A stretch of 64,000 nt of DNA, from assembly GCA_902628365.1 (NCBI GenBank), contig CACOMW010000002.1, forward strand, positions 5,298-69,297. The letters run 5' to 3'. Below are positions 28,020 to 49,109 of the stretch, piece by piece. The stretch is from an uncultured Marinoscillum sp. Lineage in GTDB: Bacteria > Bacteroidota > Bacteroidia > Cytophagales > MED-G16. Within the stretch, counting starts at the first letter, position 1. Every line of letters begins with the position of its first letter. A program made the translations under genes and the position numbers. A model generated the notes under the pieces. It was not told the DNA's origin and searched no databases. It saw only the letters and a program-made list of their open reading frames with translations.

Positions 28020-29375
28020 ATGAATAAATTTTTTATAATTATTGCAGCTTTATTTATTGGGTTTAGTTCATATAGTCAAAGAAAATATATGAAGCCAAAA
28101 TTTGCTGAAAATTGGAGTAAACCTTCAAAACATCCTGATCATATTGTATTAAATTTTTCTAATGATCCAGCTACTTCTATAAGTGTAACATGGAGAACAA
28201 GCAGTGAGGTAACTCAAGCTTATGGAGAAATTGCAGTTTCTCATGAAAATCCAAAATTTACTAATCAGGCAATTACTAAAAAAGCTATAACAAATACATT
28301 AAGATCTTCGAACGTTGTTAGTTATTGGAATTACAGAAATCCTGATCAATCTCTTTATTCTAATATTAATCAAAATTATCATTCAGTAACATTTGATGAT
28401 CTTAATCCAAATACAGTTTATGCATACAGAGTTGGGAATGGAAGTATATGGAGTGAGTGGATACAGTTTAAGACTGCAAGTAAATCTAATGATCCATTTT
28501 CATTTTTATATGTAGGTGATGCACAAAACTATATTTTAGAATTATGGTCTCGGTTAATTAGAGAAGGTTATAAAAAAGATCCTAATGCAAGTTTTATAAT
28601 TCATGCAGGTGATTTGGTAAATGATCCTCATAACGAAGATCAATGGCATGAGTGGTTTAAAGCTGGAGGATGGATTCATAGGTCCCTTCCATCATTACCT
28701 GTACCTGGAAATCATGAATATGGTCCTCTATATCAGGATGATCTGGCTGAAAAAGTGAGAAAACTATCTATTCAATGGAATGATCAGTTTACTCTACCAC
28801 AAAATGGAGTAAAAGGAATTCTTGAAACTAACTATTATGTTGATTATCAAGGTGTAAGGTTTGTTGCTCTTAATACCAATACAATGATTAAAAAACAATC
28901 TGAATGGTTAGAAGATGTTTTAAAAAATAATCCAAATAAGTGGACAATAGCTGTATTTCATCATCCGGTTTTTTCTGCTTCTAGAGGTAGGGATAATAAG
29001 ATTATTAGAGAATATTGGAAACCATTATTTGATAAATATAAAGTAGACCTTGCACTTCAAGGACACGATCACAGTTATACAAGGGGTAAAGTATCTCCCT
29101 TTGAAAAAAATACACTTTCAGGTCAAAATAAAAAAGATTTAACTGGTACCGTATATGTTGTATCTGTCAGTGGAGGTAAAATGTATCAATTAAAATCAAA
29201 TTGGGATGATTATGAAGCTAAAAGAGATAAAATTGGAAGTCAAAAGCAATTATTTCAGGTAATTTCTATAGATGGAAATAAATTATTGTATAAGTCCTAC
29301 ACAGCATTAGGAGAGTTATTTGATGAGTTTGAGTTAGTTAAAAATGAAAATGGTTCTAACTCAATTGTTCAATAA
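28020..29375 (+). CDS. Secreted metallophosphoesterase, purple-acid-phosphatase-like
   Basis: Signal peptide and an N-terminal PAP-type beta domain (ISVTWRT). Full calcineurin-like motif set: GDAQN, GDLVND, GNHE, FHHP, GHDH. Confidence 0.82.
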   Translation: MNKFFIIIAALFIGFSSYSQRKYMKPKFAENWSKPSKHPDHIVLNFSNDPATSISVTWRTSSEVTQAYGEIAVSHENPKFTNQAITKKAITNTLRSSNVVSYWNYRNPDQSLYSNINQNYHSVTFDDLNPNTVYAYRVGNGSIWSEWIQFKTASKSNDPFSFLYVGDAQNYILELWSRLIREGYKKDPNASFIIHAGDLVNDPHNEDQWHEWFKAGGWIHRSLPSLPVPGNHEYGPLYQDDLAEKVRKLSIQWNDQFTLPQNGVKGILETNYYVDYQGVRFVALNTNTMIKKQSEWLEDVLKNNPNKWTIAVFHHPVFSASRGRDNKIIREYWKPLFDKYKVDLALQGHDHSYTRGKVSPFEKNTLSGQNKKDLTGTVYVVSVSGGKMYQLKSNWDDYEAKRDKIGSQKQLFQVISIDGNKLLYKSYTALGELFDEFELVKNENGSNSIVQ

Positions 29376-29395
29376 AATTTATTTGAATATTTAAT

Positions 29396-29947
29396 TTAAT
29401 ACGAAAACTCTGCTGATTCTTGAGCTTTTACTCTTGAATACACATTGATTCTTTTAATTTTACCATCAACAAATTGAATATCATGAACATTATGTTCAAA
29501 TATTTCATTTCCATTTTCATCAGTATCAGTATAATCATTTCCTGTTGTTAACCACTGCACTACCACTCCATCTTCATTTTCCGCAGCATTAGCAATCATC
29601 CATTTAATTTCCCATTTTGGATTGGCTGTTTTAAACCAATTATCTAAAATTTCAATATGTGAGTCACTACCCTTTACAACACTACCATCGGCAGTATAAC
29701 CTTCCCAATCAACTGCATTTATTTCAGCTATTTTATCTAAATCTCTTTCATTATGAGCTTTTATATAATCAATCCAAACTTGTTCATTGTTTGTATCACC
29801 AGCAACTATTTGAATTTTTTTACCATTATCTAGTGTTCCAGATCCAATAACTGAAGGTTCATTTGAATTAGAAGTTTGATTTTGGTTTGAAGAGTTGCAT
29901 GAAACTAATGCCAAAGATAAAATTGATATATATATTAAATATTTCAT
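29396..29947 (-). CDS. Lipoprotein, NTF2/SnoaL-like fold (putative)
   Basis: Lipobox LVSC. WIDYIKAHNERDLDKIAEINAVDWEGYTADG fits the SnoaL-like pattern. Possibly a distant paralogue of 27346..27858. Confidence 0.45.
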   Translation of the reverse strand: MKYLIYISILSLALVSCNSSNQNQTSNSNEPSVIGSGTLDNGKKIQIVAGDTNNEQVWIDYIKAHNERDLDKIAEINAVDWEGYTADGSVVKGSDSHIEILDNWFKTANPKWEIKWMIANAAENEDGVVVQWLTTGNDYTDTDENGNEIFEHNVHDIQFVDGKIKRINVYSRVKAQESAEFSY

Positions 29948-30035
29948 AATTATTATTTATTTGTTAGAAAATAATTATTAAATATAATCTAATTAAATGA
30001 TAAGAAATTTATAAGCCCCCTAAATTTTTGATTAT

Positions 30036-32681
30036 TTATTCAATAATTACTTTTACTTTATGTATTTCTTTATCAGAAGCTAAGTTTAGTATATATATAC
30101 CTTTATCAAGATTCGATACATTCACTTTAATTTGATTTTTCTTTGTAAATATTTTATTTGGTTGTACTATTTTACCACTAAAGTCTACAAATTCTATCTT
30201 TATAATTTTCTTATCTTCTTTTAATTGAATTGCAAGATTATTTTTTGTTGGGTTAGGGTATATTCTTTCAATGATCTTGGAAGATTCTATGCCAGTTGTT
30301 ATCGGATCATCATCATCTTGAATGGTAATGGTAACTTTTTGATTTCCATCCTCCACTCCATATATTATGGTATCGATTTCAATGATAATTGTTTCTTCTT
30401 GCTCAACATCTTGATCTTGTACAATCATAAAATCAAGAGTTGCGATGCTATCATTAGATTTAATAGTTAATGAGTCACTATTATAAAAGTAGTCTACTTG
30501 ATCTGCGTTAGCAGTACCAGAAACTTTTAATTTAACAGTTACATCTTTTGTATGAGATTTACTTAAGGTAGCGTAGAGAGTAGATTTTTCTTGATTTTCT
30601 GCTACTGAGGTTTTATCTACTGATAAAGTAACTTTAGGTCGATCATCTGTATTATCACATGCATCTCCAATACCATCATCATCTAAGTCTTCTTGATTAG
30701 GATTGTAAGTGTCTGGACAATTATCAACATCATTCATTATACCATCCTTATCATTATCTAAAATAAAATTCCAAGGATATAATTTAGGAGTCCATCCAAC
30801 TATACCAGCTTTCCATTGAGTTCCTCCGAATTCATATGCTCCAATATCTGGTTTTGAACCAATAACATCTTGAGATATTGAATCAATTGATATACCATTA
30901 TCGACTAATATTGATCCTTGCTTTGGCATAAATGTTATAGTGTCAACTAAACTGTAGATTATACTATTAATATTATCCTTATCAGTATAATTTGTTTTAA
31001 CTGAATCCCAGCCATTCCAATTATTAGATGATGTTCCTGGTATCTTATAATCTGGAATGCCATCTACATTTTCATCAATAAAATTATCTTTACTTCTATG
31101 ACCACTTAATTTATCAACTAAATTATTTTGAGTGTATGTGTTAAGATTTGAGTTTTCCTCATCAAGTATAATTAATCCATTATTGATGCTATTAATTACT
31201 GTATTATGACTTATATAATGGTAATCGCCTTTTACCATGATCCCATTTGTTTTAAATGATACGTTATTATACATTTTACCTCTTTGACCAGCAGCGTTTG
31301 GATCATTTCCTGGAGCATCAAATCTTAAAGCATATTTTGGAGTATTATAAATAAAATTATGATGAATTTTTGCATCAGCAACCGCGTTTTTAGTTCCTTG
31401 AAAAACTGATCCATCTGACTGTAGTGCACCAGTTCTTGTAACATCATTGTAAGAAAATTCACTTCTTTCGCCTGGAGAAACTGTTGCAGATGCCTGTACA
31501 TCTCGAATGCTATTTTTTGTTATTATATTTTTATCACCATTTATATGAATAGTTACCATTAAGCCTGGTATTTCTGAGGCCGTGTAATCAATATATTGAA
31601 ATAAATTATTTTCTAAGGTATTCCTATCACCATAAATCCTTAATGCATCGCCATCAGTATATTCAAAAAGACATCTGTTAATTTTACTATCATTTACTTT
31701 ATTGGAAGAACCACTCAGTCCAAGTGAGGAAGCTAATGGTGTCCCCAAATCTCCAAGCATTCTCTTTGATGTAGAAGGGTAAGAAAAGTGACAATCTTCA
31801 ATCAATAAATTATTACTTGAAGAAGCAATGAATGAAGAAGAAAAGAAATAAAAACCTTTAATTGATACATTCGACGAATTTTTGATGTTGATTGAATAAG
31901 ATGAGACTTTACCTCTAATTTCAAGGTCATTTGGATTTGTACCATCAGTCATTAACCATAATTCACCATTTGAAGGGTTATGATACCATTCATTTAATGT
32001 ATCTAAAAGGTCCAAATCACCTTCTATAAAAAAGTGATGATGTTTTGTTTTGTATGCACCATTTGGTACTGGATCATATGTGAAATTATTATTTCCTTTT
32101 ATATGATTAATTTTTCTATTCCAGGTTCTAAATGATCCTATGTTCAAAATTGCATGAGCACTATCAAGAGTATGGTTAATAGATGACATATCATGATAGC
32201 TGGGATCAACAGTTAATAAACCATTATTACTATTAGCTTCATCACCTTGAGCCCAACTGCTCCAATTATAAATTGATTTATTTGAAAATTGTGCATTTGG
32301 CCATCTAGCCATCACCATTTCTTTATGATTTACGAATAATTGCCAAATTGATGTCTGTATATCAGTTTTAAAAATATTATTTCCTGTATTAGTCCAATTA
32401 AATGAGCTAATATCTATTGTTCCATCAAAAATAACTTTTTCATTTTCATAAGGTCTTATTGTCAAATTACTTTTGCCATCAATAATAAATACCTCTCTGT
32501 ATCTGCCTTTTCTTAATATAATTTCACCAGAAGAGATTTCAGATAGAGCTTTAGTGACCGTTTTATAAGGAAACTCTATTGAACCATTATTACTATCATT
32601 TCCCGATATAGAAACATATTTTTTTTGAGAAAAAAGATTTATTGAAATAAATAAAAGGAAGAGTAAAATTTTTTTTTTCAT
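30036..32681 (-). CDS. T9SS-secreted right-handed beta-helix (pectate-lyase-fold) protein with thrombospondin type-3 repeats and Calx-beta-like domain
   Basis: Signal peptide from Met 32681 (the ORF opens at 32708). Long parallel beta-helix-like region. Ca-binding TSP3 repeats DNDKDGIMNDVDNCPDTYNPNQEDLDDDGIGDACDN. The last ~75 aa (30039..30263; IYPNPT...GIYILNL...KVKVIIE) form a Por/T9SS C-terminal sorting domain. Confidence 0.72.
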   Translation of the reverse strand: MKKKILLFLLFISINLFSQKKYVSISGNDSNNGSIEFPYKTVTKALSEISSGEIILRKGRYREVFIIDGKSNLTIRPYENEKVIFDGTIDISSFNWTNTGNNIFKTDIQTSIWQLFVNHKEMVMARWPNAQFSNKSIYNWSSWAQGDEANSNNGLLTVDPSYHDMSSINHTLDSAHAILNIGSFRTWNRKINHIKGNNNFTYDPVPNGAYKTKHHHFFIEGDLDLLDTLNEWYHNPSNGELWLMTDGTNPNDLEIRGKVSSYSINIKNSSNVSIKGFYFFSSSFIASSSNNLLIEDCHFSYPSTSKRMLGDLGTPLASSLGLSGSSNKVNDSKINRCLFEYTDGDALRIYGDRNTLENNLFQYIDYTASEIPGLMVTIHINGDKNIITKNSIRDVQASATVSPGERSEFSYNDVTRTGALQSDGSVFQGTKNAVADAKIHHNFIYNTPKYALRFDAPGNDPNAAGQRGKMYNNVSFKTNGIMVKGDYHYISHNTVINSINNGLIILDEENSNLNTYTQNNLVDKLSGHRSKDNFIDENVDGIPDYKIPGTSSNNWNGWDSVKTNYTDKDNINSIIYSLVDTITFMPKQGSILVDNGISIDSISQDVIGSKPDIGAYEFGGTQWKAGIVGWTPKLYPWNFILDNDKDGIMNDVDNCPDTYNPNQEDLDDDGIGDACDNTDDRPKVTLSVDKTSVAENQEKSTLYATLSKSHTKDVTVKLKVSGTANADQVDYFYNSDSLTIKSNDSIATLDFMIVQDQDVEQEETIIIEIDTIIYGVEDGNQKVTITIQDDDDPITTGIESSKIIERIYPNPTKNNLAIQLKEDKKIIKIEFVDFSGKIVQPNKIFTKKNQIKVNVSNLDKGIYILNLASDKEIHKVKVIIE

Positions 32682-32866
32682 AAACTGATTTTGAGTTTTG
32701 ATTTTCAAAGGTAAAAAAAAATTTTTTGTATAAAAAAACTCCTTTTTTTTGTAATTTTTTTGTAGCAGAAAAACTTAAAAAATAATGATGAAAATGGTAA
32801 TAAAATGGTTATCTTAGAGTAACAAATGTTTGTTTTTTTTAACATTAAAACCAAAACTTAAAATAT

Positions 32867-33589
32867 ATGAATATGTTCAATTTTATTTTAGGAGTAAGTT
32901 TACAACCAGGTGATTTCACTGGTTTTACTTTCTTCATTGGATCTGTTTCAATGTTAGCTGCTACTGTGTTTTTTTTAGTACAACATGGTCAAGTTGACAA
33001 GAAATTTAAAGATTCTATGCTTGTTGCTGCATTGATTACTGGTATTGCAGCTGTACATTATTACTATATGAGAGATCAGTGGGCTGCTGGACTAGGTTCG
33101 CCAACTGAATTGAGATATATAGATTGGATTCTTACCGTTCCTCTAATGGTAGTAGAGTTTGCTTTACTTACTGGTGTAGGAATGAGAAAATTATTCTGGG
33201 CTTCAGTTGTTATGTTAGTAACAGGATATTTTGGTGAATCTGGAGTAACTGGCATGCTAGACGCTCAAATTTGGGGTGCTATAGCTGGTCTTGCTTATTT
33301 TTGGATGGCTTATGAAGTCGGTTGTTTAACCATTTTTGGTGGACCTAGTGGTGAAGTTGGTAATGCTCTTGCTAAAGCTGATGGTAAAATACCAGCTGCT
33401 GGAAGAATGTTACAGTGGTTTGTATTAGTTGGATGGTCTATTTATCCTTTAGGATATATGTTAGGAACTGACGGATGGTATAGCGGAATGCTTGCTGGCC
33501 TTCCATTAAATATGGATATTGTATATAATATTGGTGATGCAATCAATAAGATTGGATTCGGTATGGCTGTTTGGTCTGCTGCAAAATAA
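32867..33589 (+). CDS. Proteorhodopsin, light-driven proton pump (DTE motif, Met at tuning site = green type)
   Basis: Seven TM helices. AAVHYYYM (conserved His). RYIDWILTVPLMVVEF carries the acceptor Asp, Thr, Met at the position-105 equivalent and the donor Glu. IYPLGYM. Schiff-base Lys in NIGDAINKIGFG. Confidence 0.95.
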   Translation: MNMFNFILGVSLQPGDFTGFTFFIGSVSMLAATVFFLVQHGQVDKKFKDSMLVAALITGIAAVHYYYMRDQWAAGLGSPTELRYIDWILTVPLMVVEFALLTGVGMRKLFWASVVMLVTGYFGESGVTGMLDAQIWGAIAGLAYFWMAYEVGCLTIFGGPSGEVGNALAKADGKIPAAGRMLQWFVLVGWSIYPLGYMLGTDGWYSGMLAGLPLNMDIVYNIGDAINKIGFGMAVWSAAK

Positions 33590-33610
33590 TATTATATTCC
33601 TATTAATTAA

Positions 33611-33640
33611 AAAGGTGAGGTTTTCCTCACCTTTTTTTTT
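33611..33640 (+). terminator. Rho-independent terminator after proteorhodopsin
   Basis: Perfect 10-bp stem AAAGGTGAGG / CCTCACCTTT with a TTTT loop, running into a T-tract to 33640. It starts 22 nt after the PR stop codon. Confidence 0.75.
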
Positions 33641-33652
33641 GTGTTTGATAAT

Positions 33653-34528
33653 ATGATTCCCTCTAAAGACTATTTAATTCCTTCAAAGATATTTGGTTTA
33701 ATTGTTTCATTATCAATTATTTTTTTTGATGTTGAAAGTTCTTATTCAATCTTATTTTTTTTATTTATTATGTTAACAATAGGAATACCACACGGATCTA
33801 TAGATCATTTAATTGCTTTTATAAATCCTAAGACAAGGAGATTTCAAAATAAATTTTATTTTTTTATATCGTACATATCATTAATTTTTTTTAATATTTT
33901 ACTATGGATCATTTCCCCATATCTTGGGCTTTTTATTTTTTTAATAATTTCATGCTATCATTTTGGTGAAACTCAAGTATTAGGGTACACTACTACTGAT
34001 AATAAATTTTTAAGTTTTATCCTGGGCGCAAATATTCTATTATCTCTTTTTTTAAATAATATATTTGAGCTACAGGAGATATTATCTTCTCTCTCGTTTT
34101 TTAGCAGTATCGATTTAAGTGCTTTTGATAAGATATTTTTTTTATTGTTATCTATATCTATATTAATGATTTCAATTATTTATTCTGATGTTAAAAGAAA
34201 AATTCTTTTGTATGCGGAAATGAGTATTATGTACTTAATATTTTTTCATACTGATCTTCTAATATCATTTTCTTTATTTTTTGGATTTTCTCATTCTCTA
34301 CCTATGCTATTGATGGAATTTAAAGAAATGAAGGAAAAGAATTTTATAAAGTTTTATTTTAAGACTTTACCTTTTACTTTTTTATCAATTCTATTTGGAA
34401 TAATAATTTATTACTTTAATTCTGATCTACTTACAACAGATAATCTAATTTTATTCATATTTATAATTATATCAAGCTTAACTTTACCTCATGTTTTTAT
34501 TATGAAAGATTTTATACAAAACAAATAA
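33653..34528 (+). CDS. blh: Brp/Blh family beta-carotene 15,15'-dioxygenase (retinal synthesis)
   Basis: Polytopic membrane protein next to PR with four spaced conserved His segments (IPHGSIDH, CYHFGETQ, FSHSLPM, LPHVF), as in the Brp/Blh family. The start is either ATG 33653 or GTG 33641, directly abutting the terminator T-tract. Confidence 0.85.
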   Translation: MIPSKDYLIPSKIFGLIVSLSIIFFDVESSYSILFFLFIMLTIGIPHGSIDHLIAFINPKTRRFQNKFYFFISYISLIFFNILLWIISPYLGLFIFLIISCYHFGETQVLGYTTTDNKFLSFILGANILLSLFLNNIFELQEILSSLSFFSSIDLSAFDKIFFLLLSISILMISIIYSDVKRKILLYAEMSIMYLIFFHTDLLISFSLFFGFSHSLPMLLMEFKEMKEKNFIKFYFKTLPFTFLSILFGIIIYYFNSDLLTTDNLILFIFIIISSLTLPHVFIMKDFIQNK

Positions 34529-34573
34529 CTCATTAACAACGTAATTATGTTTTTTAATTTTTATTAAGACATT

Positions 34574-35443
34574 TTGAATAAAGTAGATAAGATATTTAAT
34601 TTTATATTTTCTGATATAGTTCAGAGAAAGTTTGAAAAATTTATTTTATTTCTAGCAACAGCTGGATTTATAATTCATTTATTATTGATTTATTTAAATA
34701 GGTATGAGATTATCAGTTTTACTTTTAATGACAGTCTCTTATTAAATCCAATTTCAGCATTATATACTCCATTCTCATTTATTCTTGTATATGAAGCCTT
34801 TTTATTAATTTATTTTATACCAAACTCATTTACTGTTTCAGTAGTTAAAGGGTATGAAATTATTTCTCTGATCTTGATAAGAAAAATTTTTAAAGACGTG
34901 CCTTTAGTAAATTTAGATACAAATTTTTTGTTAGATCCTTATTCCACACAATTGATATATGACTTACTCGGTATAATTATTATTTTCTTTTTGATCTATT
35001 TATTTAAGAAAAACGCAGGGATTAAGAAAAAGAAAACAATCGGTAAAAGACTAGAAAAGTTTATAATAAAGAAAAAAGCAATTTCAGTTCTTTTAGTTCC
35101 AACTTTGATTTTTTTAGTTTGCTATAGTTTTTATTTTTGGTTTAACGGTGTAGTTCTCTCAAATTCATTTACTCAAGATTTAAATTATCTATTTTTTATC
35201 GATTTTTTTACAATTTTAATTCTTGTTGATGTTTTTATCTTATTAATCTCATTTAGATATACAGAGAGATATTCTCAACTTATAAGAAATACTGGTTTTA
35301 TTATATCAACCATTTTGTTAAGGTTATCATTTGGAGTTTCAGGATTAAAAAGTATTATTTTATTAATTTCAGGAATACTATTTGGCTTGTTAATTCTTTT
35401 GATATATAAGAAAATGGAAAAAGTTAAATATTTAGATAATTAG
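34574..35443 (+). CDS. Unknown polytopic membrane protein, ~8 TM, two homologous 4-TM halves
   Basis: Long ORF with strong TM periodicity. It is closed upstream by TAA 34565..34567 and has no Met before residue 281, so TTG 34574 is the only plausible start. The internal repeat is seen by eye. No family recognised. Confidence 0.6.
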   Translation: MNKVDKIFNFIFSDIVQRKFEKFILFLATAGFIIHLLLIYLNRYEIISFTFNDSLLLNPISALYTPFSFILVYEAFLLIYFIPNSFTVSVVKGYEIISLILIRKIFKDVPLVNLDTNFLLDPYSTQLIYDLLGIIIIFFLIYLFKKNAGIKKKKTIGKRLEKFIIKKKAISVLLVPTLIFLVCYSFYFWFNGVVLSNSFTQDLNYLFFIDFFTILILVDVFILLISFRYTERYSQLIRNTGFIISTILLRLSFGVSGLKSIILLISGILFGLLILLIYKKMEKVKYLDN

Positions 35444-35450
35444 ATATTCT

Positions 35451-36455
35451 TCAGTTAAATCTTGAAAAAATAATTAGAGTTAATCCTAATATAAAAAGAC
35501 AAAACATAACTGAAATTAAATTGTTTGTCCCTTTAGGGGCATGCTTGAATTCTTTCCAAATGAAAACTCCCCATGCCGCTGCTACCATTGTTGCTCCCTG
35601 ACCGAGACCATATGATATTGCGTATCCTGCTTTTTCACTAGAAATCATACTCAAACTCATTCCAATACACCATATAACTCCTCCTAATATTCCTATTAAA
35701 TGAAGTTTTAGATTCCCTTTTGTTATATAATCAGAATAACTTAATTTATTGCCTTCTATTGGATTGTACATGAAATAGGTATTCCATAAAAAATTGGAAA
35801 TAAAAATTCCAAGAGAGAAAATAAATACAGCACTATATGGAGTTAATAATCCAGGTTCAGGAGAATCAAAATTTGTGATTATAGATGAAGCAACAAATCG
35901 ATAAAAGAATCCCATCAAAATACCACCCAGAATTGAAATGATTATTCCTTTTGATGATGTTGCCTTATTATTTATAGATAATCTTTTATAGGCTATAGCA
36001 TCTATAATTATAGCAATAGTTACTATCGCTACTCCTGAAAATAATATTATAGGATTTCCAATTGGTGTAGCAATATAATTTACTATAACACCTAAAACAA
36101 GTGCAATCCCAATTCCAATAGGAAATGCAACTGCCATTCCTGCTATGCTTATTGCAGCTACTATTAATAAATTTGCAATATTGAATATTACTCCTCCAAA
36201 AAATGCATTTAAAAAAGAGCTTGAACTACCTTGATTAAGATCATCGAAAAAGCTTCTCCCATTTTCTCCAAAGCTGCCAAATGTTAACCCAAGTATCAAA
36301 GAAAATAAAATTACCCCAATAGAATAATCCCAATAATAAAGTGGAAAGCTCCATGATTTTGAAGTAAGTTTTTGAGTATTTGCCCATGAACCCCAACAAA
36401 TCATAGTTATGAAACATAATATTACAGCAATCTCATAACTTTTAATTATCAACAT
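35451..36455 (-). CDS. DMT-superfamily GRP-type sugar (ribose/glucose-like) permease
   Basis: 10-TM protein of 334 aa. The N-terminal CWGSWANTQK segment and overall layout resemble the sugar-transport (GRP/RhaT-like) branch of DMT transporters. Substrate not determinable. Confidence 0.6.
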   Translation of the reverse strand: MLIIKSYEIAVILCFITMICWGSWANTQKLTSKSWSFPLYYWDYSIGVILFSLILGLTFGSFGENGRSFFDDLNQGSSSSFLNAFFGGVIFNIANLLIVAAISIAGMAVAFPIGIGIALVLGVIVNYIATPIGNPIILFSGVAIVTIAIIIDAIAYKRLSINNKATSSKGIIISILGGILMGFFYRFVASSIITNFDSPEPGLLTPYSAVFIFSLGIFISNFLWNTYFMYNPIEGNKLSYSDYITKGNLKLHLIGILGGVIWCIGMSLSMISSEKAGYAISYGLGQGATMVAAAWGVFIWKEFKHAPKGTNNLISVMFCLFILGLTLIIFSRFN

Positions 36456-36458
36456 GAT

Positions 36459-38018
36459 TTAAATAGATTTTTTTTTATAAGTTATTAAGTTTGTTATATC
36501 TAATCTTACATCTTTATTAGGATTTTTTATTTTCATTTTTAAGGTGTGCTCTCCTGGATCTAAATCATATTTAAAAAATAACTCATGTGCTCTTTCAATG
36601 AAATATATTGGAGTTTGTATAGTCTTAGAAATTTTATTATCGATGGAATATTCTATTTCTAAATTATAATTATTGATTGTTTCTTCATCTGTAATTAAAG
36701 CATATTTATTATCAAAATTTTTATTTCTCACTCTCCCTTTTAAAACAATACCGATACCTTCAAATTCTAAACTTAACTCTTGCTTATCTTCAAATCCAAT
36801 GCTTTTATTGATTTTGATTTTTTCACCTAATTTATAATTAGGAAAACTTTGTTCCATAGGTGCTGTAATTGCATTTTGAATTTTAATTTTTATTTTTTCA
36901 TTATCGACTTTTCCACCATTTTTAATTATTAACTCTTTTGCATGTTTTAAACTTATCTCGTATACTTTATTTAAGGATGTATTTGTAAATTGAAAATCAA
37001 TATCTTCAATAGATTTTAATCCTTTTGTCCAAAATTTTGGTATTTTGCTATAACCTTTTAATGTTCCTAAGATCGCCATTGCTGTAGCAGGATTACAGTC
37101 TGAATCTTGGCCGGCTCTAGTTGAAATTTCTAAGGTATTTTTAAAATTTTCTTTTCCATAAAGAAGCCCGAGAACTACATAGGCAGCATTTATTTTTGCA
37201 TCTATGTTAAAGTCTTCATGAGCACCATCTGGACATCCAATATCTTCTCCCCATTTTTTTTCAATCAATTCCCAATTTTTTTTCCAATCTTTTGGGTACT
37301 CATTATGCCAATCGATTACATCTTTTATACATTGATAAAATGTGCTTTCTTTTGGTATCATATTTAGAGATTTATTAATTATAGTAGGAATATCATTCTC
37401 CACAAATGCATGACTGTACATTCCTGCTACAAAAACACCACCATAATACCCATCACCATAATTCATTATATGACCAACTTTATCACAAATTTCTAAAGCT
37501 GTATTAGGCATTCCTGGAGTCATTATTCCAGCAAAATCAGCTTCAATTTGAAAGTCAATATCATCTGCATGGGGATTATTTAACCAATGTCCAGATTCTG
37601 GAGGCATCATACCATTTAATATATTATAACGCCCTTGTTGATTAGCATGCCATAGCCAGTATTTTGCATTAGCATATGCTTTTGCATGTGATGAAGCTGG
37701 CGCATCAAGTCCTTCTTTTTCCATAACCTCAACAAAAGTTAGATCCATATAAATATCATCATATAATCCAGGAGTATTTTTCATCGTATTGTATAATGTG
37801 CTATCATCCCATAATATCTCAATACTGTCTGGTATAATTTTTTTTAAATATCTAAATTCGGTCGGCCCTCCAAATGTGACCCCAATGGTTTGAGAAGCCC
37901 ATGCTCCTTTAACTTTATCTTTTAACTCATCCTCTGATATTATATAATATTTATTTTGTTCATAATTATTACAGCTAATCAGAGTAAAAAAAAATAATGT
38001 AGGTAACAGGTATTTCAT
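36459..38018 (-). CDS. Exported ADP-ribosylglycohydrolase-family lipoprotein with extra C-terminal domain
   Basis: Lipobox LISC. N-terminal ARH signature VKGAWASQTIGVTFGGPTE and C-terminal metal-binding signature AGQDSDCNPATAMAILG (equivalent to GGDTDT). About 130 additional C-terminal residues are beta-rich. Confidence 0.68.
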   Translation of the reverse strand: MKYLLPTLFFFTLISCNNYEQNKYYIISEDELKDKVKGAWASQTIGVTFGGPTEFRYLKKIIPDSIEILWDDSTLYNTMKNTPGLYDDIYMDLTFVEVMEKEGLDAPASSHAKAYANAKYWLWHANQQGRYNILNGMMPPESGHWLNNPHADDIDFQIEADFAGIMTPGMPNTALEICDKVGHIMNYGDGYYGGVFVAGMYSHAFVENDIPTIINKSLNMIPKESTFYQCIKDVIDWHNEYPKDWKKNWELIEKKWGEDIGCPDGAHEDFNIDAKINAAYVVLGLLYGKENFKNTLEISTRAGQDSDCNPATAMAILGTLKGYSKIPKFWTKGLKSIEDIDFQFTNTSLNKVYEISLKHAKELIIKNGGKVDNEKIKIKIQNAITAPMEQSFPNYKLGEKIKINKSIGFEDKQELSLEFEGIGIVLKGRVRNKNFDNKYALITDEETINNYNLEIEYSIDNKISKTIQTPIYFIERAHELFFKYDLDPGEHTLKMKIKNPNKDVRLDITNLITYKKKSI

Positions 38019-38059
38019 ACTTTTGGGAATTAGTGTTTAATAAATAAAAATAATAAATC

Positions 38060-39715
38060 TTAATTACTTAAATTCTTACTAGTAACATAATAATCTCTGT
38101 CTATTGATATTTTTTTATTTTTAATTTCAAGTTCTTGCCATTTATTTTTTGGAAATAATTTTTGATTTTTTTTATCGATTATTATTTCTATTGGCATATT
38201 AAAGTTTTCAATTGTATTTGCCCATCTATATTTTAGTTTATTGCTCTCAATTTTATATTCAAATACTGGGATTCTATAATCTCTTAAATATTGATCAAAA
38301 ACATATTTTAAATCGAAACCAATATTTTTAGAAATATATTCTTCTACTTGTGCTGAAGATACAGTTTGATGATAAAATGTTTTATTTAAACCTCTAAAAA
38401 TCGCTCTCCATTTTTCATCATTGGGAGCAATTTGTCTAATTGTATGCAGTAAGTTTGCTCCTTTTGAATACATATCTTTTGAACCTTCTCTATTTACATT
38501 GTACGGTCCAATTATTGGTTTTGTATTCTGAATTCCTTTACGTGTTCCGATTGTATAATCTGCTCCAGCTTCTTTACCAAAATGATAATTTAAAAATAAA
38601 TTTTCTGAATATGCTGTAAAGCCTTCGTGAATCCACATATCAGCCATGTCAATATAAGTGATATTATTTGCAAACCATTCATGGCCAGATTCATGAATAA
38701 TTATAAAATCAAATTTTAAGCCCCATCCGGTATCAGAAGGGTCTCTACCTAAATAACCTTTCAAAAATTTATTTCCATAAGTTATTGAGCTTTGATGTTC
38801 CATGCCGAGATAAGGTACTTCAACCAATTTATAGCCATCTTCATAAAACGGATAGGGTCCAAACCAATATTCAAATGCTTCTAGCATTTTTGGCACATCT
38901 TTAAAATGTTTTTTAGCTTTTTCTAGATTATAACTTAATACAAAATAATCAACATCTAATTTACCTTTCTCTCCATCATAGATTTCAGAAAAGTTAACAT
39001 AATCACCAATGTTTATGTTTACACCGTAATTGTTTATTGGGTTATTAACAAAGTAATGGTAAGTTTTTCTTTCATTATTTTCGGATGTTACTTTTCTCAA
39101 TCTACCATTAGATACATTAATCAGATTTTCTGGTATATTAACACTAATGAGCATACTGTCAACTTCATCATACATATGATCTTTATTAGGCCACCATACA
39201 CTTGCTCCAAGTCCTTGACATGATGTTGCAATAAAATGATTATTATTTTCATCTCTATCCCAAGAAAGTCCTCCGTCCCAAGGCGCTCTTATGGCTTCTT
39301 TTGGTTTTCCTTCATATTCTATAATTAATTTATTTATGTCACCGACTTTCTGTTCTTTACTTAAAAAGATGAAATATACATTACCTTCTCTATTATATTT
39401 TAAAGGTTTATTTTCTTGAATTACTGAAGTAATCATCATAGGTTCTTGTAGGTCAATTTGAATTACTTGATAAGGTTTTAGTACACTATATACTACGGTA
39501 TTCTTTCCAGAAATAAATTTTTCATCAGGGAAAACAGAAATATCTAAATGATAATAATTTAAATCCCACCACTCTCTTTCTTTTGTTATACTTCCTCTCA
39601 GGGTATCTTGTCTGGTAAAAGATTCCTTTTCTTCAAATATGCCCTGAGAAAATAAAGGATATGATAAAATTTGTATACATGTAACAATAAAAAAACAAAA
39701 AATGTTTTTATTCAT
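38060..39715 (-). CDS. M1-family zinc metallopeptidase (aminopeptidase N-like), secreted
   Basis: HESGHEWFANNITYIDMADMWIHEG is an exact HExxH-x18-E gluzincin motif. Signal peptide. 551 aa. Confidence 0.87.
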   Translation of the reverse strand: MNKNIFCFFIVTCIQILSYPLFSQGIFEEKESFTRQDTLRGSITKEREWWDLNYYHLDISVFPDEKFISGKNTVVYSVLKPYQVIQIDLQEPMMITSVIQENKPLKYNREGNVYFIFLSKEQKVGDINKLIIEYEGKPKEAIRAPWDGGLSWDRDENNNHFIATSCQGLGASVWWPNKDHMYDEVDSMLISVNIPENLINVSNGRLRKVTSENNERKTYHYFVNNPINNYGVNINIGDYVNFSEIYDGEKGKLDVDYFVLSYNLEKAKKHFKDVPKMLEAFEYWFGPYPFYEDGYKLVEVPYLGMEHQSSITYGNKFLKGYLGRDPSDTGWGLKFDFIIIHESGHEWFANNITYIDMADMWIHEGFTAYSENLFLNYHFGKEAGADYTIGTRKGIQNTKPIIGPYNVNREGSKDMYSKGANLLHTIRQIAPNDEKWRAIFRGLNKTFYHQTVSSAQVEEYISKNIGFDLKYVFDQYLRDYRIPVFEYKIESNKLKYRWANTIENFNMPIEIIIDKKNQKLFPKNKWQELEIKNKKISIDRDYYVTSKNLSN

Positions 39716-39776
39716 AATTAATTTTATTTGTGTTAAGAATTTAAATGTAAATATTTTTTAACTAAATTTAATTGTA

Positions 39777-40538
39777 ATGATAAAATATACATTCTTTTTA
39801 ATTTTTTGTTTTTCTATTTCATTTTCTGCGGATGCTCAATCACTAAAAGGATTAAAAAATAAAGCTCTTAACTTAAAAAATAACCTTAAAAACACTTCCA
39901 AAAGTCTTCCATCCATTACTGAAGATGAAGCAGCTACCGCTTTAAGAGATGCTCTAAATAATGGAATAAATAATTCTGTTGAAATAGTATCTAAAGTTGA
40001 TGGATATTTACAAAATCCAGAAATAAAAATACCTTTTCCTCCTGATGCAAAAAAAATTGAAGATAGATTAAGGTCATTAGGGTTGAATAAATTAGTTGAT
40101 GATGCTATTTTATTTATTAATAGGGCAGCGGAAGATGCTGCAACAGAAGCTAAACCTATTATCATTCAAGCCATTAAAAATATGACAGTTAAAGATGCTA
40201 TAAATATAGTTAAAGGAAAAGAAGATGAAGGAACAAATTATTTAAAGAAAAATACCTTTGACTCATTATATAAAAAGTTTATTCCACCTATTGAAATTTC
40301 GTTAGAAAAAGTTAATGCTACTAAACATTGGTCAACTGTTATAAATAGATATAATAAAATTCCTCTGGTTCAAAAAGTGAATCCTGATTTAGATGATTAT
40401 GTTACAAGAAAAGCTTTAGATGGATTATTTATTATGATTGCAAAGGAAGAAAAAAAAATTAGAGAAAAACCTTTAGCAAGAGTAACTGAAACATTAAAGA
40501 AAGTATTTGATTGGGTTGATAATCAAAAAAATGAATAA
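39777..40538 (+). CDS. DUF4197 domain-containing secreted protein
   Basis: Signal peptide. Conserved blocks match my recollection of DUF4197: NPEIKIPFPPDA, INRAAEDAA, MTVKDAINIV, YVTRKALDGLF, IAKEEKKIREKPLAR. Confidence 0.68.
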   Translation: MIKYTFFLIFCFSISFSADAQSLKGLKNKALNLKNNLKNTSKSLPSITEDEAATALRDALNNGINNSVEIVSKVDGYLQNPEIKIPFPPDAKKIEDRLRSLGLNKLVDDAILFINRAAEDAATEAKPIIIQAIKNMTVKDAINIVKGKEDEGTNYLKKNTFDSLYKKFIPPIEISLEKVNATKHWSTVINRYNKIPLVQKVNPDLDDYVTRKALDGLFIMIAKEEKKIREKPLARVTETLKKVFDWVDNQKNE

Positions 40539-40547
40539 TATTTACCT

Positions 40548-41225
40548 ATGATTAAAATTAAATTAAAGCAATTCTTTATCCTTTTTATTTTTTTATTTTC
40601 ATTAAAAATAAAAGCTCAAAATAATGAGGGAGGAATTTATATGTTACAATTTAAAATAGATAATGATTTAATAGAGGAGTTTAAAGTAGAATTCCCGGAA
40701 AAAAAATTTTTTACTTCATTTAGTGAAATTATTGAATTTTCTGATGAAGTATTGGATTCTATTAAGTTTGTAAGTGAAAGTTTTCTCTCAAAAAAGTTGA
40801 GTTCTGATGTGAAGTGTATATATAAGTATACTAAAAGGGGAAAGAAAATTACATCTGTTGGGGTTTTAGGACAGTTGGATGGTATGCCAGTAAATACTTT
40901 TAAAAATACAATTCAGAGTTATAATAAAAAATACTATATTTCTATAGTTGCAAATTTCCAAGCAGGAGGATATTCTATTGATTTTGGAAGAGGAAAAAGA
41001 AGTAAAATAAAACCAAAATTAACTTTAGTTGTAAATGTTTTTGATGTAGATAAAAATTTAATTTTTAAAAATAAATTTGTAGAAAAAAATTTTGAAAAAC
41101 TTAGATCATATTCAGGATCCTATGAAGGTGTTAGAGGTAATACTGTAGTTACAGCATCAGAAACATTAAGAGATGTGGATTTTTTTTCAATGTATAAGTC
41201 AACTTTAGATAAACTCCTCAAATAA
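40548..41225 (+). CDS. Hypothetical secreted protein
   Basis: Signal peptide (FSLKIKAQ). No recognisable motifs. Coding supported only by ORF length and operon-like spacing (9 nt after the DUF4197 gene). Confidence 0.4.
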   Translation: MIKIKLKQFFILFIFLFSLKIKAQNNEGGIYMLQFKIDNDLIEEFKVEFPEKKFFTSFSEIIEFSDEVLDSIKFVSESFLSKKLSSDVKCIYKYTKRGKKITSVGVLGQLDGMPVNTFKNTIQSYNKKYYISIVANFQAGGYSIDFGRGKRSKIKPKLTLVVNVFDVDKNLIFKNKFVEKNFEKLRSYSGSYEGVRGNTVVTASETLRDVDFFSMYKSTLDKLLK

Positions 41226-42093
41226 TAAATGTATTTTTTGGTATTGAAATTGCCCCACCTTTTTTTGTTACACAAATTGAAGCAGCTTTAGATGCAATTA
41301 ATAAACAATCTTTTATTTCTTTTTTTTTAGATAAGTAACTTATAAAATAACCAATAAAAGTATCTCCTGCCGCCGTAGTGTCTACAGCTTTAACTTTCAC
41401 CGCTTCGCATTTTAAATATTCATTTTTATTAAAATAAATAGATCCTTTTTCTCCAAGGGTTAGCAAAATGGATGTATTAGAATATTTATTTTTTAAATAA
41501 TAAATTATTTCATCATAATCAATATTATTTTTTGATAGTTTTTTTGCTTCACTTTCATTTACAATAAGATAATCTACTAAACTAAGTGGGTAGTTTAAAA
41601 CCTCTTTTGTCATAGGGGCTGGATTGAAAAATATTCTCATTCCTCTATTTGCAGCTTTTTCTATTATTTCGGGTATTTTATTTATTTCATTTTGGAGAAG
41701 TAAAATATCTCCTTGATTAAAATTTTGTAATATTTTATCTATTTGACTTGATTCAAAAGCTCTGTTTGCACCTCCGTGAATAATAATTGAATTTTCTCCA
41801 TTTTTATTTACTTGAATTATTGCATGACCAGTACTTTCATCTACCTCCTTTATGTAATCAATATTAACATTCCATTTTATTAATTCTTTTTTAATATTAT
41901 CATCTTTGATATTTATATTTCCGGCATGAAAAACTTGAGAACCAGCTTGAGCTAATGCCACACTTTGATTTAATCCTTTTCCACCTAGAAAAACTTTAAA
42001 ATTATTACTAGGAATTGTTTCACCAGATTTTACAAAATTATCTACTTCATAAACATAATCAATATTAATTGAACCTATATTTAGTATTTTCAT
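41218..42093 (-). CDS. rbsK: Ribokinase (PfkB family)
   Basis: GGKGLNQSVALAQ (the GGKGxNQ ribokinase motif) and C-terminal PfkB signature AVDTTAAGDTFIG. 291 aa. Confidence 0.85.
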   Translation of the reverse strand: MKILNIGSINIDYVYEVDNFVKSGETIPSNNFKVFLGGKGLNQSVALAQAGSQVFHAGNINIKDDNIKKELIKWNVNIDYIKEVDESTGHAIIQVNKNGENSIIIHGGANRAFESSQIDKILQNFNQGDILLLQNEINKIPEIIEKAANRGMRIFFNPAPMTKEVLNYPLSLVDYLIVNESEAKKLSKNNIDYDEIIYYLKNKYSNTSILLTLGEKGSIYFNKNEYLKCEAVKVKAVDTTAAGDTFIGYFISYLSKKKEIKDCLLIASKAASICVTKKGGAISIPKNTFII

Positions 42094-44345: not shown

Positions 44346-45653
44346 TTAATATTTTTTTAAACCCAAATCTATATTGAGCTGACCTTTTTTCTTAAGCCAC
44401 ATTGAACGATAAATTCCTTTTTTATCATGAAGTTCGGATTGTCTTTCAGGGTTAAAAACCCAATTTCTAGTATTGTTTCCGACTCCTGCAATATACATCC
44501 AATTACACCAGTTACTTGTTACATCATAATCTATCAAATGCTTTTCAAAGAATGATGCACCCCATACCCAATTTAGATCTAAATTGTTAATTAAATAACT
44601 TGCTACATTTTGTCTGCCTCTGTTACTCATAAAGCCAGTCTCTTTAAGTTCTTTCATATTGGCATCAATAAACTCTTGACCAGTTTCTCCTCTTTTCCAT
44701 TTTTCAAATAATTTTAAGTCATTATTAAAATTTTTAGAAAATATATTACCATTAATGCCTTCTTTTAAAAAAATCTTATTTTTAGCTTTTAGATATACAT
44801 ACCTAAAAAACTCTCTCCATAAAAGTTCAAAAATAAGCCAGTAAGTAGATGAATTTTTTTTAATCTCTTTTTCATATCTTTTCACCTCTTGATAAATCAT
44901 TACAGGTGAAATACATCCAAGGCATAGATACGCTGAAAACTTAGAAGAGTATTCAGTTCCTATAAGGCCGTTTCTTGTTTCTTTGTATTTTTCTATATTT
45001 TTTGATTTCCAAAGATAATTTTTAAGCCTATTAAGACCGTTATTTTCACCTCCTACAAATGGATAAGAAGAATTTAGATTAGTATCTATCATCAAATATT
45101 CTAATTGAATTGTAAAAGGGGAGAGATAATCATTTTTTGATTGAATAGTAGGATCAAATTTTTCAACGTCTCTGATGACAACTAACTTTTCAACCTTCTT
45201 TCTAAAGTGAGTAAATATAAGAGGTAATTCTTCAACTTGATATGGTAATTTTTTTGATTCAAATAGATTTTGATCTTCAAATAAATTTAAATTGAAATCA
45301 TTATCATAAAGTATTTTTTCCTCCCTTTCTTCATATGTACCAACCTCTTTTGTTCCATATACCGTAGTACTATATTTTTTTAAGTCATCGAAGATTTCAA
45401 GAATATTGCCTTCAAGAATCATGAGTTTAATATTGATTTTATTCAGGTCTTTTTTTAAGTTTAATATGGATTCAATTAAAAATTTTTCTCTGAATTTACC
45501 AATCTTTTCAGTATCAGAATTAATTGGATTGAATATTTTATAATCCATTATATATACAAAAAGAAGCTCATCATTTTCTTTTATTGCGCTATTTAATGAA
45601 GGGTTATCATGTATTCTTAAGTTTTTTCTAAACCAATATATTGCCTTTTTCAT
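44346..45653 (-). CDS. Cryptochrome DASH (photolyase/cryptochrome family)
   Basis: N-terminal IYWFRKNLRIHDNPSL and FAD-binding C-terminal blocks (TGFMSNRGRQNVASYL, WGASFFEKHLIDYDVTSNWCNWMY). The ~435-aa size is typical of CRY-DASH. Confidence 0.85.
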   Translation of the reverse strand: MKKAIYWFRKNLRIHDNPSLNSAIKENDELLFVYIMDYKIFNPINSDTEKIGKFREKFLIESILNLKKDLNKINIKLMILEGNILEIFDDLKKYSTTVYGTKEVGTYEEREEKILYDNDFNLNLFEDQNLFESKKLPYQVEELPLIFTHFRKKVEKLVVIRDVEKFDPTIQSKNDYLSPFTIQLEYLMIDTNLNSSYPFVGGENNGLNRLKNYLWKSKNIEKYKETRNGLIGTEYSSKFSAYLCLGCISPVMIYQEVKRYEKEIKKNSSTYWLIFELLWREFFRYVYLKAKNKIFLKEGINGNIFSKNFNNDLKLFEKWKRGETGQEFIDANMKELKETGFMSNRGRQNVASYLINNLDLNWVWGASFFEKHLIDYDVTSNWCNWMYIAGVGNNTRNWVFNPERQSELHDKKGIYRSMWLKKKGQLNIDLGLKKY

Positions 45654-45654
45654 A

Positions 45655-47127
45655 TTATAAATTATTTAAAAAACTCTTTGCAGTTATATTCAAATTATTT
45701 TTCTTATTTGTATCCATTTTATCATAAGAATTTACAAGCATTCTCATTCTAGGATTTCTTATAAAAAACTCTTTTTGATTTTTAATAAAATTCCAAAATA
45801 GAGAATCCCATATTACACACCAATCTCCTTTTTTATAGTCACTCATTTTAAGAATATAACTACTACCGCTTATATATGGTTTTGTTGACATCAACCCCCC
45901 ATCTGCGAATTGACTCATTCCATAAACATTTGGTACCATCACCCAATCATAAGAATCTATAAATAGTTCCATAAACCATTTATAAACCTCATCAGGATCA
46001 AATTCACATAGAAGCATGAAATTACCTAGAATCATAAGTCTTTCAATATGATGGGTATAAGCACTGTTTATCACTTTATTTATACTTTCATCAACTGGAT
46101 CTATCCCTGTTTTACCATTGTAAAAAGATGACGGTATTTTTCTTTTGAAACCCCAATAGTTTTTTGTTCTTTCATAGCTTCCTTTGACTGTATAAATTCC
46201 TCTAATGAATTCTCTCCAACCAATTATTTGTCTAATAAACCCTTCACATGAATTGATAGGTATTTTATTTATTTTATAAAATTTTATTGTTTCATTAATT
46301 ATATATTTTGGAGATAAGAGCCCAACATTAATCAATGGAGATAATAAACTATGGTTTAATATGGATTCATCTTTTAATATAGCATCTTCATACGGACCGA
46401 ATTCTTTAAATCTTACTTTTAAAAACTCATGAAACCATTTTTTTGCAGATTTAAAATTATTAGGGTAAATAATTTTGGAGTTAATCGATCCTAAATTATT
46501 ATTAAAATGGATTGTCACATATCTGACTGCCTCAGCTTGAATTTCATCTGTTTTAGGATATAAAATATTAGGTGTTTTTTTATTCTTAGGATATTTTTCT
46601 CTGTTTTCATTATCATAAGTCCATTTCCCACCAGCTGGATCGTTATTATCAATTAATATATTAAGGTTTTTTCTTTGATTTTTATAAAAGGATGTTTGAA
46701 AAAATTTTACTTTTTCATTTTTAAAAAATGTTTTTAAATCTTCCTTTGTATTGATAAATGATGGATTGTCATAAAAAATAATTTTTATACTTCTTTTTTG
46801 ACATTCTTTTTTTAATCTTTTTTCAATTAAAAAATCATCTGGATCAATTGTATGAATAGTTTCTATCTCTTTTGAAAGGTTTCTAATAAAATTTTTTATT
46901 TCAGAACTTTTATCTTTAGATTCTATATATCTAACATCATAACCTATTTTGATAAGATAATTTTCATAATGTTTCATAGTTGATCTATGAAAAATTAATT
47001 TTTGTTTATGAAAGTTAAATTGTTTAAAAAATAAGTACTCCTCAATTAGATAAATTGGGAATTCTTTTTTCAAAAACTGATTGTTTTCATGAAGTTGGTT
47101 TGGTAGAATAATTGATATTTCTTTCAT
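45655..47127 (-). CDS. Photolyase-related CPF protein (COG3046 / FeS-BCP-CryPro-related)
   Basis: ILPNQL N-terminus, CEGFIRQIIGWREFIRG, HHIERLMILGNF, NVYGMSQFADGG...KPYISGSSYILKMSDY. These blocks are characteristic of the deoxyribodipyrimidine photolyase-related family. Confidence 0.8.
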   Translation of the reverse strand: MKEISIILPNQLHENNQFLKKEFPIYLIEEYLFFKQFNFHKQKLIFHRSTMKHYENYLIKIGYDVRYIESKDKSSEIKNFIRNLSKEIETIHTIDPDDFLIEKRLKKECQKRSIKIIFYDNPSFINTKEDLKTFFKNEKVKFFQTSFYKNQRKNLNILIDNNDPAGGKWTYDNENREKYPKNKKTPNILYPKTDEIQAEAVRYVTIHFNNNLGSINSKIIYPNNFKSAKKWFHEFLKVRFKEFGPYEDAILKDESILNHSLLSPLINVGLLSPKYIINETIKFYKINKIPINSCEGFIRQIIGWREFIRGIYTVKGSYERTKNYWGFKRKIPSSFYNGKTGIDPVDESINKVINSAYTHHIERLMILGNFMLLCEFDPDEVYKWFMELFIDSYDWVMVPNVYGMSQFADGGLMSTKPYISGSSYILKMSDYKKGDWCVIWDSLFWNFIKNQKEFFIRNPRMRMLVNSYDKMDTNKKNNLNITAKSFLNNL

Positions 47128-47281
47128 TTTTATTTCTTCTGCATTTTTCTGAACAATATTTAACTTCTTTCCAGCAGTTTCTCCATTTTTTTCTATAAGA
47201 AAATGGTTTAAGGCAAACTATACATATTTTGAAGTCAAGTTTTTTTTTACCATTTTTTGGGTAATTCATTTCTTTTTGCAT
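47087..47281 (-). CDS. DUF2256 zinc-ribbon protein
   Basis: KICIVCLKPFSYRKKWRNCWKEVKYCSEKCRRNK carries CxxC...CxxxC and the RKKW...W..VKYCS..CR pattern of DUF2256. It overlaps both neighbours in different frames. An alternative start is Met 47269. Confidence 0.75.
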   Translation of the reverse strand: MQKEMNYPKNGKKKLDFKICIVCLKPFSYRKKWRNCWKEVKYCSEKCRRNKNERNINYSTKPTS

Positions 47282-47876: not shown

Positions 47877-47878
47877 AA

Positions 47879-49038: not shown

Positions 49039-49109
49039 GAATCTTTATACTCTTTTTAAAAGATTTGGTTTACGTTTTTTAAATATTTTTTCTAATAAAT
49101 CTAAACGCT

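Follow-up and report, generated by a model that had tools for sequence, protein, structure and literature searches.

Organization of the PR-blh locus

The window, that is, the whole 64,000-nt stretch of DNA that was analyzed, comes from an uncultured Marinoscillum sp. (contig CACOMW010000002.1). It carries a proteorhodopsin (PR) gene followed by blh, which encodes the beta-carotene 15,15'-dioxygenase that makes retinal, and, behind blh on the same strand, a gene for a 289-aa protein with eight predicted transmembrane (TM) helices, hereafter referred to as the 8-TM gene. The features of this part of the window are as follows.

32867..33589, + strand: proteorhodopsin (Pfam Bac_rhodopsin, 7e-31), with the proton-pump motif D..T..E ('RYIDWILTVPLMVVEF') and the Lys that binds retinal ('DAINKIG')
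33609..33636, + strand: terminator- or attenuator-like hairpin in the PR-blh gap (12-bp stem, 4-nt loop, T run)
33641..34528, + strand: blh (Pfam BCD, 1.2e-38; TIGR03753, 5e-41)
34529..34573, + strand: 45-nt spacer between blh and the 8-TM gene, without a terminator-like hairpin, containing an in-frame TAA at 34565-34567
34574..35443, + strand: coding sequence of the 289-aa 8-TM protein, with start codon TTG at 34574 (alternatively ATT at 34571) and stop codon TAG at 35441-35443

A preliminary description of this DNA had placed the 8-TM gene 45 nt behind blh on the same strand and had proposed an obligate non-ATG start, and both points stand. blh ends at 34528, which leaves a gap of 45 nt. The only Met codon in the frame of the 8-TM gene is residue 281 and the frame is closed upstream by the in-frame TAA, so translation must begin at TTG 34574 or ATT 34571. 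Homologues start with 'ML(K/N)KVD', and their ATG lies exactly at the position of the ATT in the window. In L088, a metagenomic contig (94% identical), the 'att TTG' recurs and is preceded by a stop at a distance of two codons, indicating that the non-ATG start is a trait of the lineage and not a sequencing error. Judged from these alignments, the odd start is the product of an ATG-to-ATT change in the lineage of the window. The ORF is a real gene under purifying selection, with a dN/dS of 0.125 between the window and L088 and 24 invariant positions across 106 homologues (down to about 32% identity).

A scan of the spacer found no terminator-like site between blh and the 8-TM gene, and the next gene downstream is convergent. 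The short same-strand gap without a terminator points to a shared transcript, and blh and the 8-TM gene are probably co-transcribed in the window. From the hairpin in the PR-blh gap, expression of PR would be expected to exceed that of the two genes behind it by a wide margin. Near the 8-TM gene, no Bacteroidetes-type promoter motifs (TTTG..TAnnTTTG) were found, and a sigma-70 promoter scan there stayed below shuffle expectation.

The nearest relatives of the 8-TM protein are encoded in Marinoscillum-like MAGs (69-73% identity), which have no PR or blh beside the gene, indicating that PR-blh came to lie beside the 8-TM gene within the lineage of the window. When positions 28020-42093 were compared with L001, L008-L010, and L013, genes for Metallophos, SnoaL-like, T9SS-tail, M1 peptidase, and PfkB proteins were shared, in rearranged order. 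PR-blh upstream of the 8-TM gene was confined in this comparison to the window and L088, as was a pair of genes downstream of it (35451-38018) that encode a ureide-permease-like transporter and an ADP-ribosylglycohydrolase.

An undescribed family of membrane proteins

The preliminary description had left the protein unassigned to any family, and our searches agree. The 8-TM protein had no match at E<=1 in Pfam or NCBIfam, and three further homologues had none in NCBIfam. When 83 diverse members were searched, no family was matched by more than four of them, and the best E value was 0.0023. A profile built from the 83 sequences had no match at E<=10 among PDB sequences. Foldseek comparison of the full-length model with the PDB returned generic helical-bundle noise (best E 0.17, TM<=0.29), and the model of the N-terminal half gave a best E of 3.7. 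We found no published description of the family in the literature, and every source labels its members 'hypothetical protein'. The 8-TM protein is a member of an undescribed membrane-protein family found across the FCB group.

The family comprises more than 6,700 clusters at 90% identity (E<=1e-3). Its representatives at 50% identity number 701 at E<=1e-3 and 414 at 1e-10, and relatives occur in at least 572 GTDB species genomes. Nearly all members are 288-320 aa long, and most are from Bacteroidota plus Balneolaceae. Named sources include Flavobacteriaceae, Cryomorphaceae, Cyclobacteriaceae, Saprospiraceae, Marinoscillum/Flammeovirgaceae, and Balneolaceae, together with one Calditrichota MAG and one Pyrinomonadales MAG, and some distant members are from high-GC organisms. 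The family was absent from the IMG/VR viral contigs searched.

Several other assignments were considered and set aside. Longer homologues were examined for informative domain fusions, and their extra N-terminal residues seem to be over-called ORFs or to be of low complexity. The protein is not a microbial rhodopsin: it has eight helices instead of seven, no Bac_rhodopsin match, and no conserved mid-membrane Lys, and the rhodopsin chains in its Foldseek list had TM scores of only 0.22-0.29. Nor could it be assigned to the known carotenoid or retinal enzymes, having no Pfam match to Blh/Brp BCD, lycopene cyclases, CruF, or CrtZ/W.

Predicted architecture and internal duplication

An AlphaFold2 model of the 8-TM protein, based on an alignment of 106 sequences, had a pLDDT of 81.4 and a pTM of 0.78, and the N-terminal half modeled separately had a pLDDT of 87.7. 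Both are confident models. In the full-length model, a short amphipathic helix at the N-terminus precedes eight long ones, predicted at residues 14-43, 59-81, 86-111, and 122-148 (helices 1-4) and at residues 158-195, 203-229, 233-254, and 258-288 (helices 5-8). Helix 3, which carries K92, E95, R103, K/R104, K107, and D108, is too polar to be detected by hydropathy. Basic segments are found at the N-terminus, in the loop between helices 4 and 5 (KKNAGIKKKKTIGKRLEKFIIKKK, very basic), and at the C-terminus. By the positive-inside rule, both ends and the central loop would be cytoplasmic.

According to the preliminary description, the protein consists of two homologous 4-TM halves, each with a buried acidic residue and an Arg. 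The two halves are as follows.

34607..35023, + strand: repeat 1, residues 12-150, TM1-TM4, with conserved H35, Y64-T65-P66-F67, E74, S85, E95, R103, D108, and D130
35027..35440, + strand: repeat 2, residues 152-289, TM5-TM8, with conserved K167, W189, F207, F212, D219, S226, R238, N239, G241, T246, and S252

Among homologues down to about 32% identity, the positions that do not vary, or hardly vary, include all of those given for repeat 1 and K167, W189, D219, R238, N239, and T246 of repeat 2. Each motif on which the description had relied was found in place: RKFEKFI at residues 18-24 and KRLEKFI at residues 158-164, the pairs ILVYEAFLLI and ILVDVFILLI and IISLILIRKIF and IISTILLRLSF, and a KK after the last helix of each half, that is, after helices 4 and 8. 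Aligned with each other by blastp, the halves are collinear over 99 aa with 23% identity (E 8e-4, without composition correction). Comparison of the halves by hhalign was marginal (P about 0.04-0.05), and we therefore wrote our own profile-profile Smith-Waterman permutation test. The observed score was 25.8, compared with 13.3+/-1.8 for full column shuffles (z 7.0) and 15.8+/-2.3 for shuffles within each helix or loop (z 4.3). In 300 shuffles of each type, the observed score was never reached, and the reversed half scored 17.5. In the register of the repeat, E74 aligns with D219 and R103 with R250, as expected from the proposed pairing of acidic residues and arginines. On these alignment scores, we accept the internal duplication as real but weak and ancient.

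H35 is the only invariant His in the family. The alignment of homologues contained no conserved mid-membrane Lys, no His/Cys clusters or metal-binding motifs, and no Asp-rich motifs, and we recognized no catalytic motif or cofactor site.

Genomic context of the family

Gene neighborhoods were analyzed for a sample of 176 loci with flanks of up to 10 kb, which were searched with HMMs for blh, rhodopsin, photolyase/cryptochrome, and DPRP genes. Clustering of the 8-TM proteins at 70% identity gave 55 lineages, 43 of which had enough flanking sequence to be informative. blh was the most frequent neighbor family within 3 kb (13 of the 55 lineages). Rhodopsin genes were found within this distance in six lineages, and a photolyase-like subfamily of ~495 aa in five. 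Among the 43 informative lineages, blh or rhodopsin lay within 3 kb in 13, which represent at least five gene orders, and cryptochrome, photolyase, or DPRP genes did so in six. At least one of these two types of light gene was present in 18 lineages and neither in 25. Light genes became monotonically sparser with distance from the 8-TM gene: their density per 100 kb of flank was 7.6 in the first 1 kb and 1.6 at 6-10 kb.

The gene order at light-linked loci varied, with six or more arrangements that span different families and orders, including Balneolaceae. In several of these arrangements the genes are closely packed on one strand (same-strand gaps of 2-100 nt). By our own rough estimate, which assumes a genome of ~3 Mb with about three light loci and is not a computed genome-wide null, chance linkage would occur in ~1% of lineages, so that ~0.4 of the 43 would be expected to be linked where 18 were observed. 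One conserved flavobacterial block accounts for about half of the lineages linked to blh, which reduces the number of independent blh-linkage events from 13 to about 6-8. On three long contigs from other clades, the homologue was surrounded by unrelated genes. The link of the family to light genes is not obligate.

The gene orders with blh and rhodopsin are given below, where T is the 8-TM gene and the signs are strands.

PR+ blh+ T+: window, L088, and L151
T+ blh+ rhodopsin-: Gracilimonas halophila, L081
T+ blh- PR-: Cyclobacteriaceae, L068 and L080; also L134, L138, and L141
T+ PR+ followed by a crtY-blh fusion+: L101; the short contig L166 shows only the T+ PR+ start
T+ HtrA+ blh-: Saprospiraceae MAG, L065
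glyoxalase+ T+ folD- (ffh-) blh- PR+: conserved flavobacterial block, about 20 loci, one or two events

blh directly adjoins the 8-TM gene in the window and in L088, L151, L081, L068, L080, L134, L138, L141, and L114. The crtY-blh fusion of L101 (8970-11021) is a single 684-aa ORF with Lycopene_cycl (6e-41) and BCD/Blh (3e-35) domains, located directly 3' of the 8-TM gene and PR on the same strand. The neighboring folD gene was considered as a link to the MTHF antenna of photolyases and was discarded, as this adjacency is confined to the one syntenic flavobacterial block.

The gene orders with cryptochrome and photolyase genes were as follows (phr, photolyase-like gene).

CryDASH+ T+ DPRP+ phr+: Winogradskyella, L070, with gaps of 55, 8, and 2 nt
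T+ phr+: L159, with a gap of 4 nt
T+ phr-: Robertkochia aurantiaca, L089
T+ DPRP+: L090

In L154, L107, and L062, photolyase-family genes lie 1.4-3 kb from the 8-TM gene. The photolyase-family genes that most often adjoin it encode the ~495-aa subfamily, whose members are 34-59% identical (for example, L070, 9250-10740, and L089, 8894-10378; also L159, L154, L107, and L062). This subfamily appears to be unclassified, as its members score below the NCBIfam cut-offs of the CPD, DASH, 8-HDF, and plant-cryptochrome models. The same-strand string of the Winogradskyella locus also holds genes for an ABC1 kinase, a flavin reductase, a DUF2867 protein, GTP cyclohydrolase I, an SDR, and a CPD photolyase. 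The window itself has a cluster of this kind at 44346-50060, with genes for a DASH cryptochrome, a DPRP, a flavin reductase, an SDR, a 158-aa ORF, and a divergent DUF1295 protein, and the Winogradskyella locus has the same gene set with the 8-TM family embedded in it. The first two genes of the window cluster are as follows.

44346-45653, - strand: DASH cryptochrome (TIGR02765, 441 bits, above cut-off)
45655-47127, - strand: DPRP-type photolyase-related gene

From its position directly behind PR and blh, the 8-TM protein had been proposed to be an accessory of the PR photosystem. This proposal holds in part. blh is the top neighbor and recurs directly beside the 8-TM gene in several unrelated taxa and in varied orientations, so that the adjacency is not peculiar to the window, but 25 of the 43 informative lineages have no light gene nearby. 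A dedicated PR accessory is in any case too narrow a description, because the 8-TM gene is placed just as tightly in cryptochrome/photolyase operons that have no rhodopsin. The evidence points to a light-response module instead.

Comparison with known systems

PR, blh, and a photolyase-like flavoprotein gene were reported to be the only genes exclusive to PR-containing flavobacteria (Woyke et al. 2009, PMC2668756). The 8-TM family is not among them, which implies that it is not strictly tied to PR. Kumagai et al. (2018, PMC5932025) showed that blh, DUF2237, and a photolyase cluster are enriched in PR-containing flavobacteria. Orthologue groups without a known function were left out of their test, a possible reason why the family was never flagged. 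The 8-TM gene, itself of unknown function, is tied by context to PR, blh, and photolyase-like genes, the three types of gene reported as exclusive in PMC2668756. Its product is integral to the membrane, and neither PMC5932025 nor PMC2668756 mentions it. A survey from 2026 describes rhodopsin operons as consisting of rhodopsin, blh, and up to four carotenoid genes (PMC13043013). Compared with PR photosystem clusters (PR-blh with optional crtE/I/B/Y and idi), the 8-TM gene lies in or beside the PR-blh pair and recurs there in several taxa, but it is no described component and has no similarity to carotenoid enzymes, and most carriers do not have it at the PR locus.

Heme A synthase CtaA/COX15 and the UbiA prenyltransferases are pseudo-symmetric membrane proteins of two times four TM helices. 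The predicted architecture of the 8-TM protein is likewise one of eight helices in two parallel homologous halves, with both termini cytoplasmic and conserved polar residues at equivalent positions in the two halves. It differs in having neither the paired His of CtaA nor the Asp-rich motifs of UbiA, and in having no Pfam or Foldseek match. Voltage-sensor and Hv1-type domains are four-helix bundles in which the basic helix is the fourth. The 8-TM protein also has one Arg/Lys-rich helix per half ('IRRIFKD' in helix 3) and conserved acidic partners on adjacent helices (E74 and D130), but its basic helix is the third and lacks RxxR periodicity, and the model of the N-terminal half retrieved no voltage-sensor structure (best Foldseek E 3.7).

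Candidate roles

The reading we favor, tentatively and with somewhat less than even confidence, is that the 8-TM proteins are a family of light-response inner-membrane proteins with a duplicated 4-TM architecture and are probable translocators of an ion or small solute. The family would be part of a light-response gene neighborhood, placed in or beside the blh-PR pair or in a cryptochrome/photolyase operon depending on the lineage. In the window, the 8-TM gene would be transcribed with blh, and the hairpin upstream would separate the highly expressed PR from blh. The predicted helix positions suggest two layers of charged or polar residues, one toward the inner leaflet (K92, E95, E74, D219, R238, and N239) and one toward the outer leaflet (H35, Y64, T65, R103, K107, D108, D130, W189, and N204). 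Together with the unusually charged helix 3, these layers could form a polar path across the membrane. Through such a path the protein would pass an ion or small solute, as a channel or secondary transporter whose activity the illuminated cell requires. In our judgment, the predicted protein, with no His/Cys clusters, mid-membrane Lys, or Asp-rich motifs, fits a channel or transporter better than a carotenoid enzyme or chromophore receptor. A caution against transport is that the model resembles no solved fold, and a structural role in salt bridges, or a catalytic one, would account for the conserved charges equally well.

That the top neighbor of the family is blh rather than PR would also suit a partner of Blh and rhodopsin in retinal or carotenoid handling, which might deliver beta-carotene, hand retinal to the opsin, or detoxify or modify free retinal. 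The many loci listed above at which blh directly adjoins the 8-TM gene are in keeping with this role, as is L101, where the 8-TM gene heads the string with PR and the crtY-blh fusion. We nevertheless regard such a role as unlikely. The absence of a conserved mid-membrane Lys and of His/Cys metal-binding motifs counts against it, as does the absence of matches to BCD, lycopene cyclase, CruF, CrtZ/W, and UbiA models. The 8-TM gene is equally embedded in cryptochrome/photolyase operons without retinal genes, and E. coli reportedly needs nothing beyond PR, crtEIBY, and blh for a working PR photosystem (a result ascribed to Martinez, 2007). These operons could instead argue for a membrane enzyme or protectant that is induced with photolyases against damage to lipids or quinones by singlet oxygen or UV. 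The 8-TM gene lies between Cry-DASH, DPRP, and photolyase genes, with flavin reductase, SDR, DUF2867, ABC1 kinase, and DUF1295 genes in the same cluster; and retinal and flavins are photosensitizers. The role would be analogous to that of the membrane proteins in proteobacterial sigmaE/ChrR-photolyase clusters. With no recognizable catalytic motif or cofactor site in the protein, and with linkage to blh/PR commoner than linkage to photolyase genes (13 versus six lineages), we consider photo-oxidative protection quite unlikely.

The linkage itself might have little to do with function if the protein were an ordinary housekeeping membrane protein, brought near light genes by inherited synteny and chance. 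The variable neighborhoods, most of which have no light genes, would be accounted for in this way, as would the large share of linked loci contributed by one flavobacterial block and the implication of PMC2668756 that the family is not exclusive to PR-containing genomes. Inherited synteny does not readily explain six or more gene orders across families and orders that include Balneolaceae, several with same-strand gaps of 2-100 nt. The first rank of blh among all neighbor families, the monotonic fall of light-gene density with distance, and the excess of linked lineages over our rough estimate for chance (18 versus ~0.4 of 43) also speak against it, and a housekeeping protein seems to us very doubtful.

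Rhodopsin phototrophy is regarded as a two-gene system (opsin and blh) fed by carotenoid genes, and how cells turn it into a benefit for growth or survival is still debated. The 8-TM family is abundant in marine Bacteroidota metagenomes, highly conserved, and unnamed, and its recurrent context with blh/PR or cryptochrome/photolyase genes makes it a concrete candidate for a membrane component that accounts of the light response have so far missed. A broader claim, which we consider possible though on balance not likely, is that the family is an unrecognized third component of the bacteroidetal rhodopsin/light system. Its members would then be channels or transporters of a new kind, or would handle retinal. 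Produced together with blh/PR and with cryptochromes, they would be required for cells to draw a physiological benefit from light-driven proton pumping or from light sensing. The family occurs in cultured bacteria (Winogradskyella, Polaribacter, Gracilimonas halophila, and Robertkochia aurantiaca), and E. coli systems for PR expression are available. Even if the link to light were only regulatory, the family would be a new class of membrane-protein fold with no solved relative detectable here.

Two loci with distant homologues have other neighbors. On the high-GC contig L177 (3-2275), a gene for a 2-TM K+ channel with a TVGYG filter and an RCK domain (TrkA_N/TrkA_C) overlaps the start of the homologue by 4 nt. 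This overlap, the sole case among 180 loci, may be taken as a single weak hint of a role in ion handling. On L176 (2050-4127), the homologue is followed, also with an overlap of 4 nt, by a gene for a protein with an AceK regulatory domain, and two Ferritin_2 genes lie upstream.
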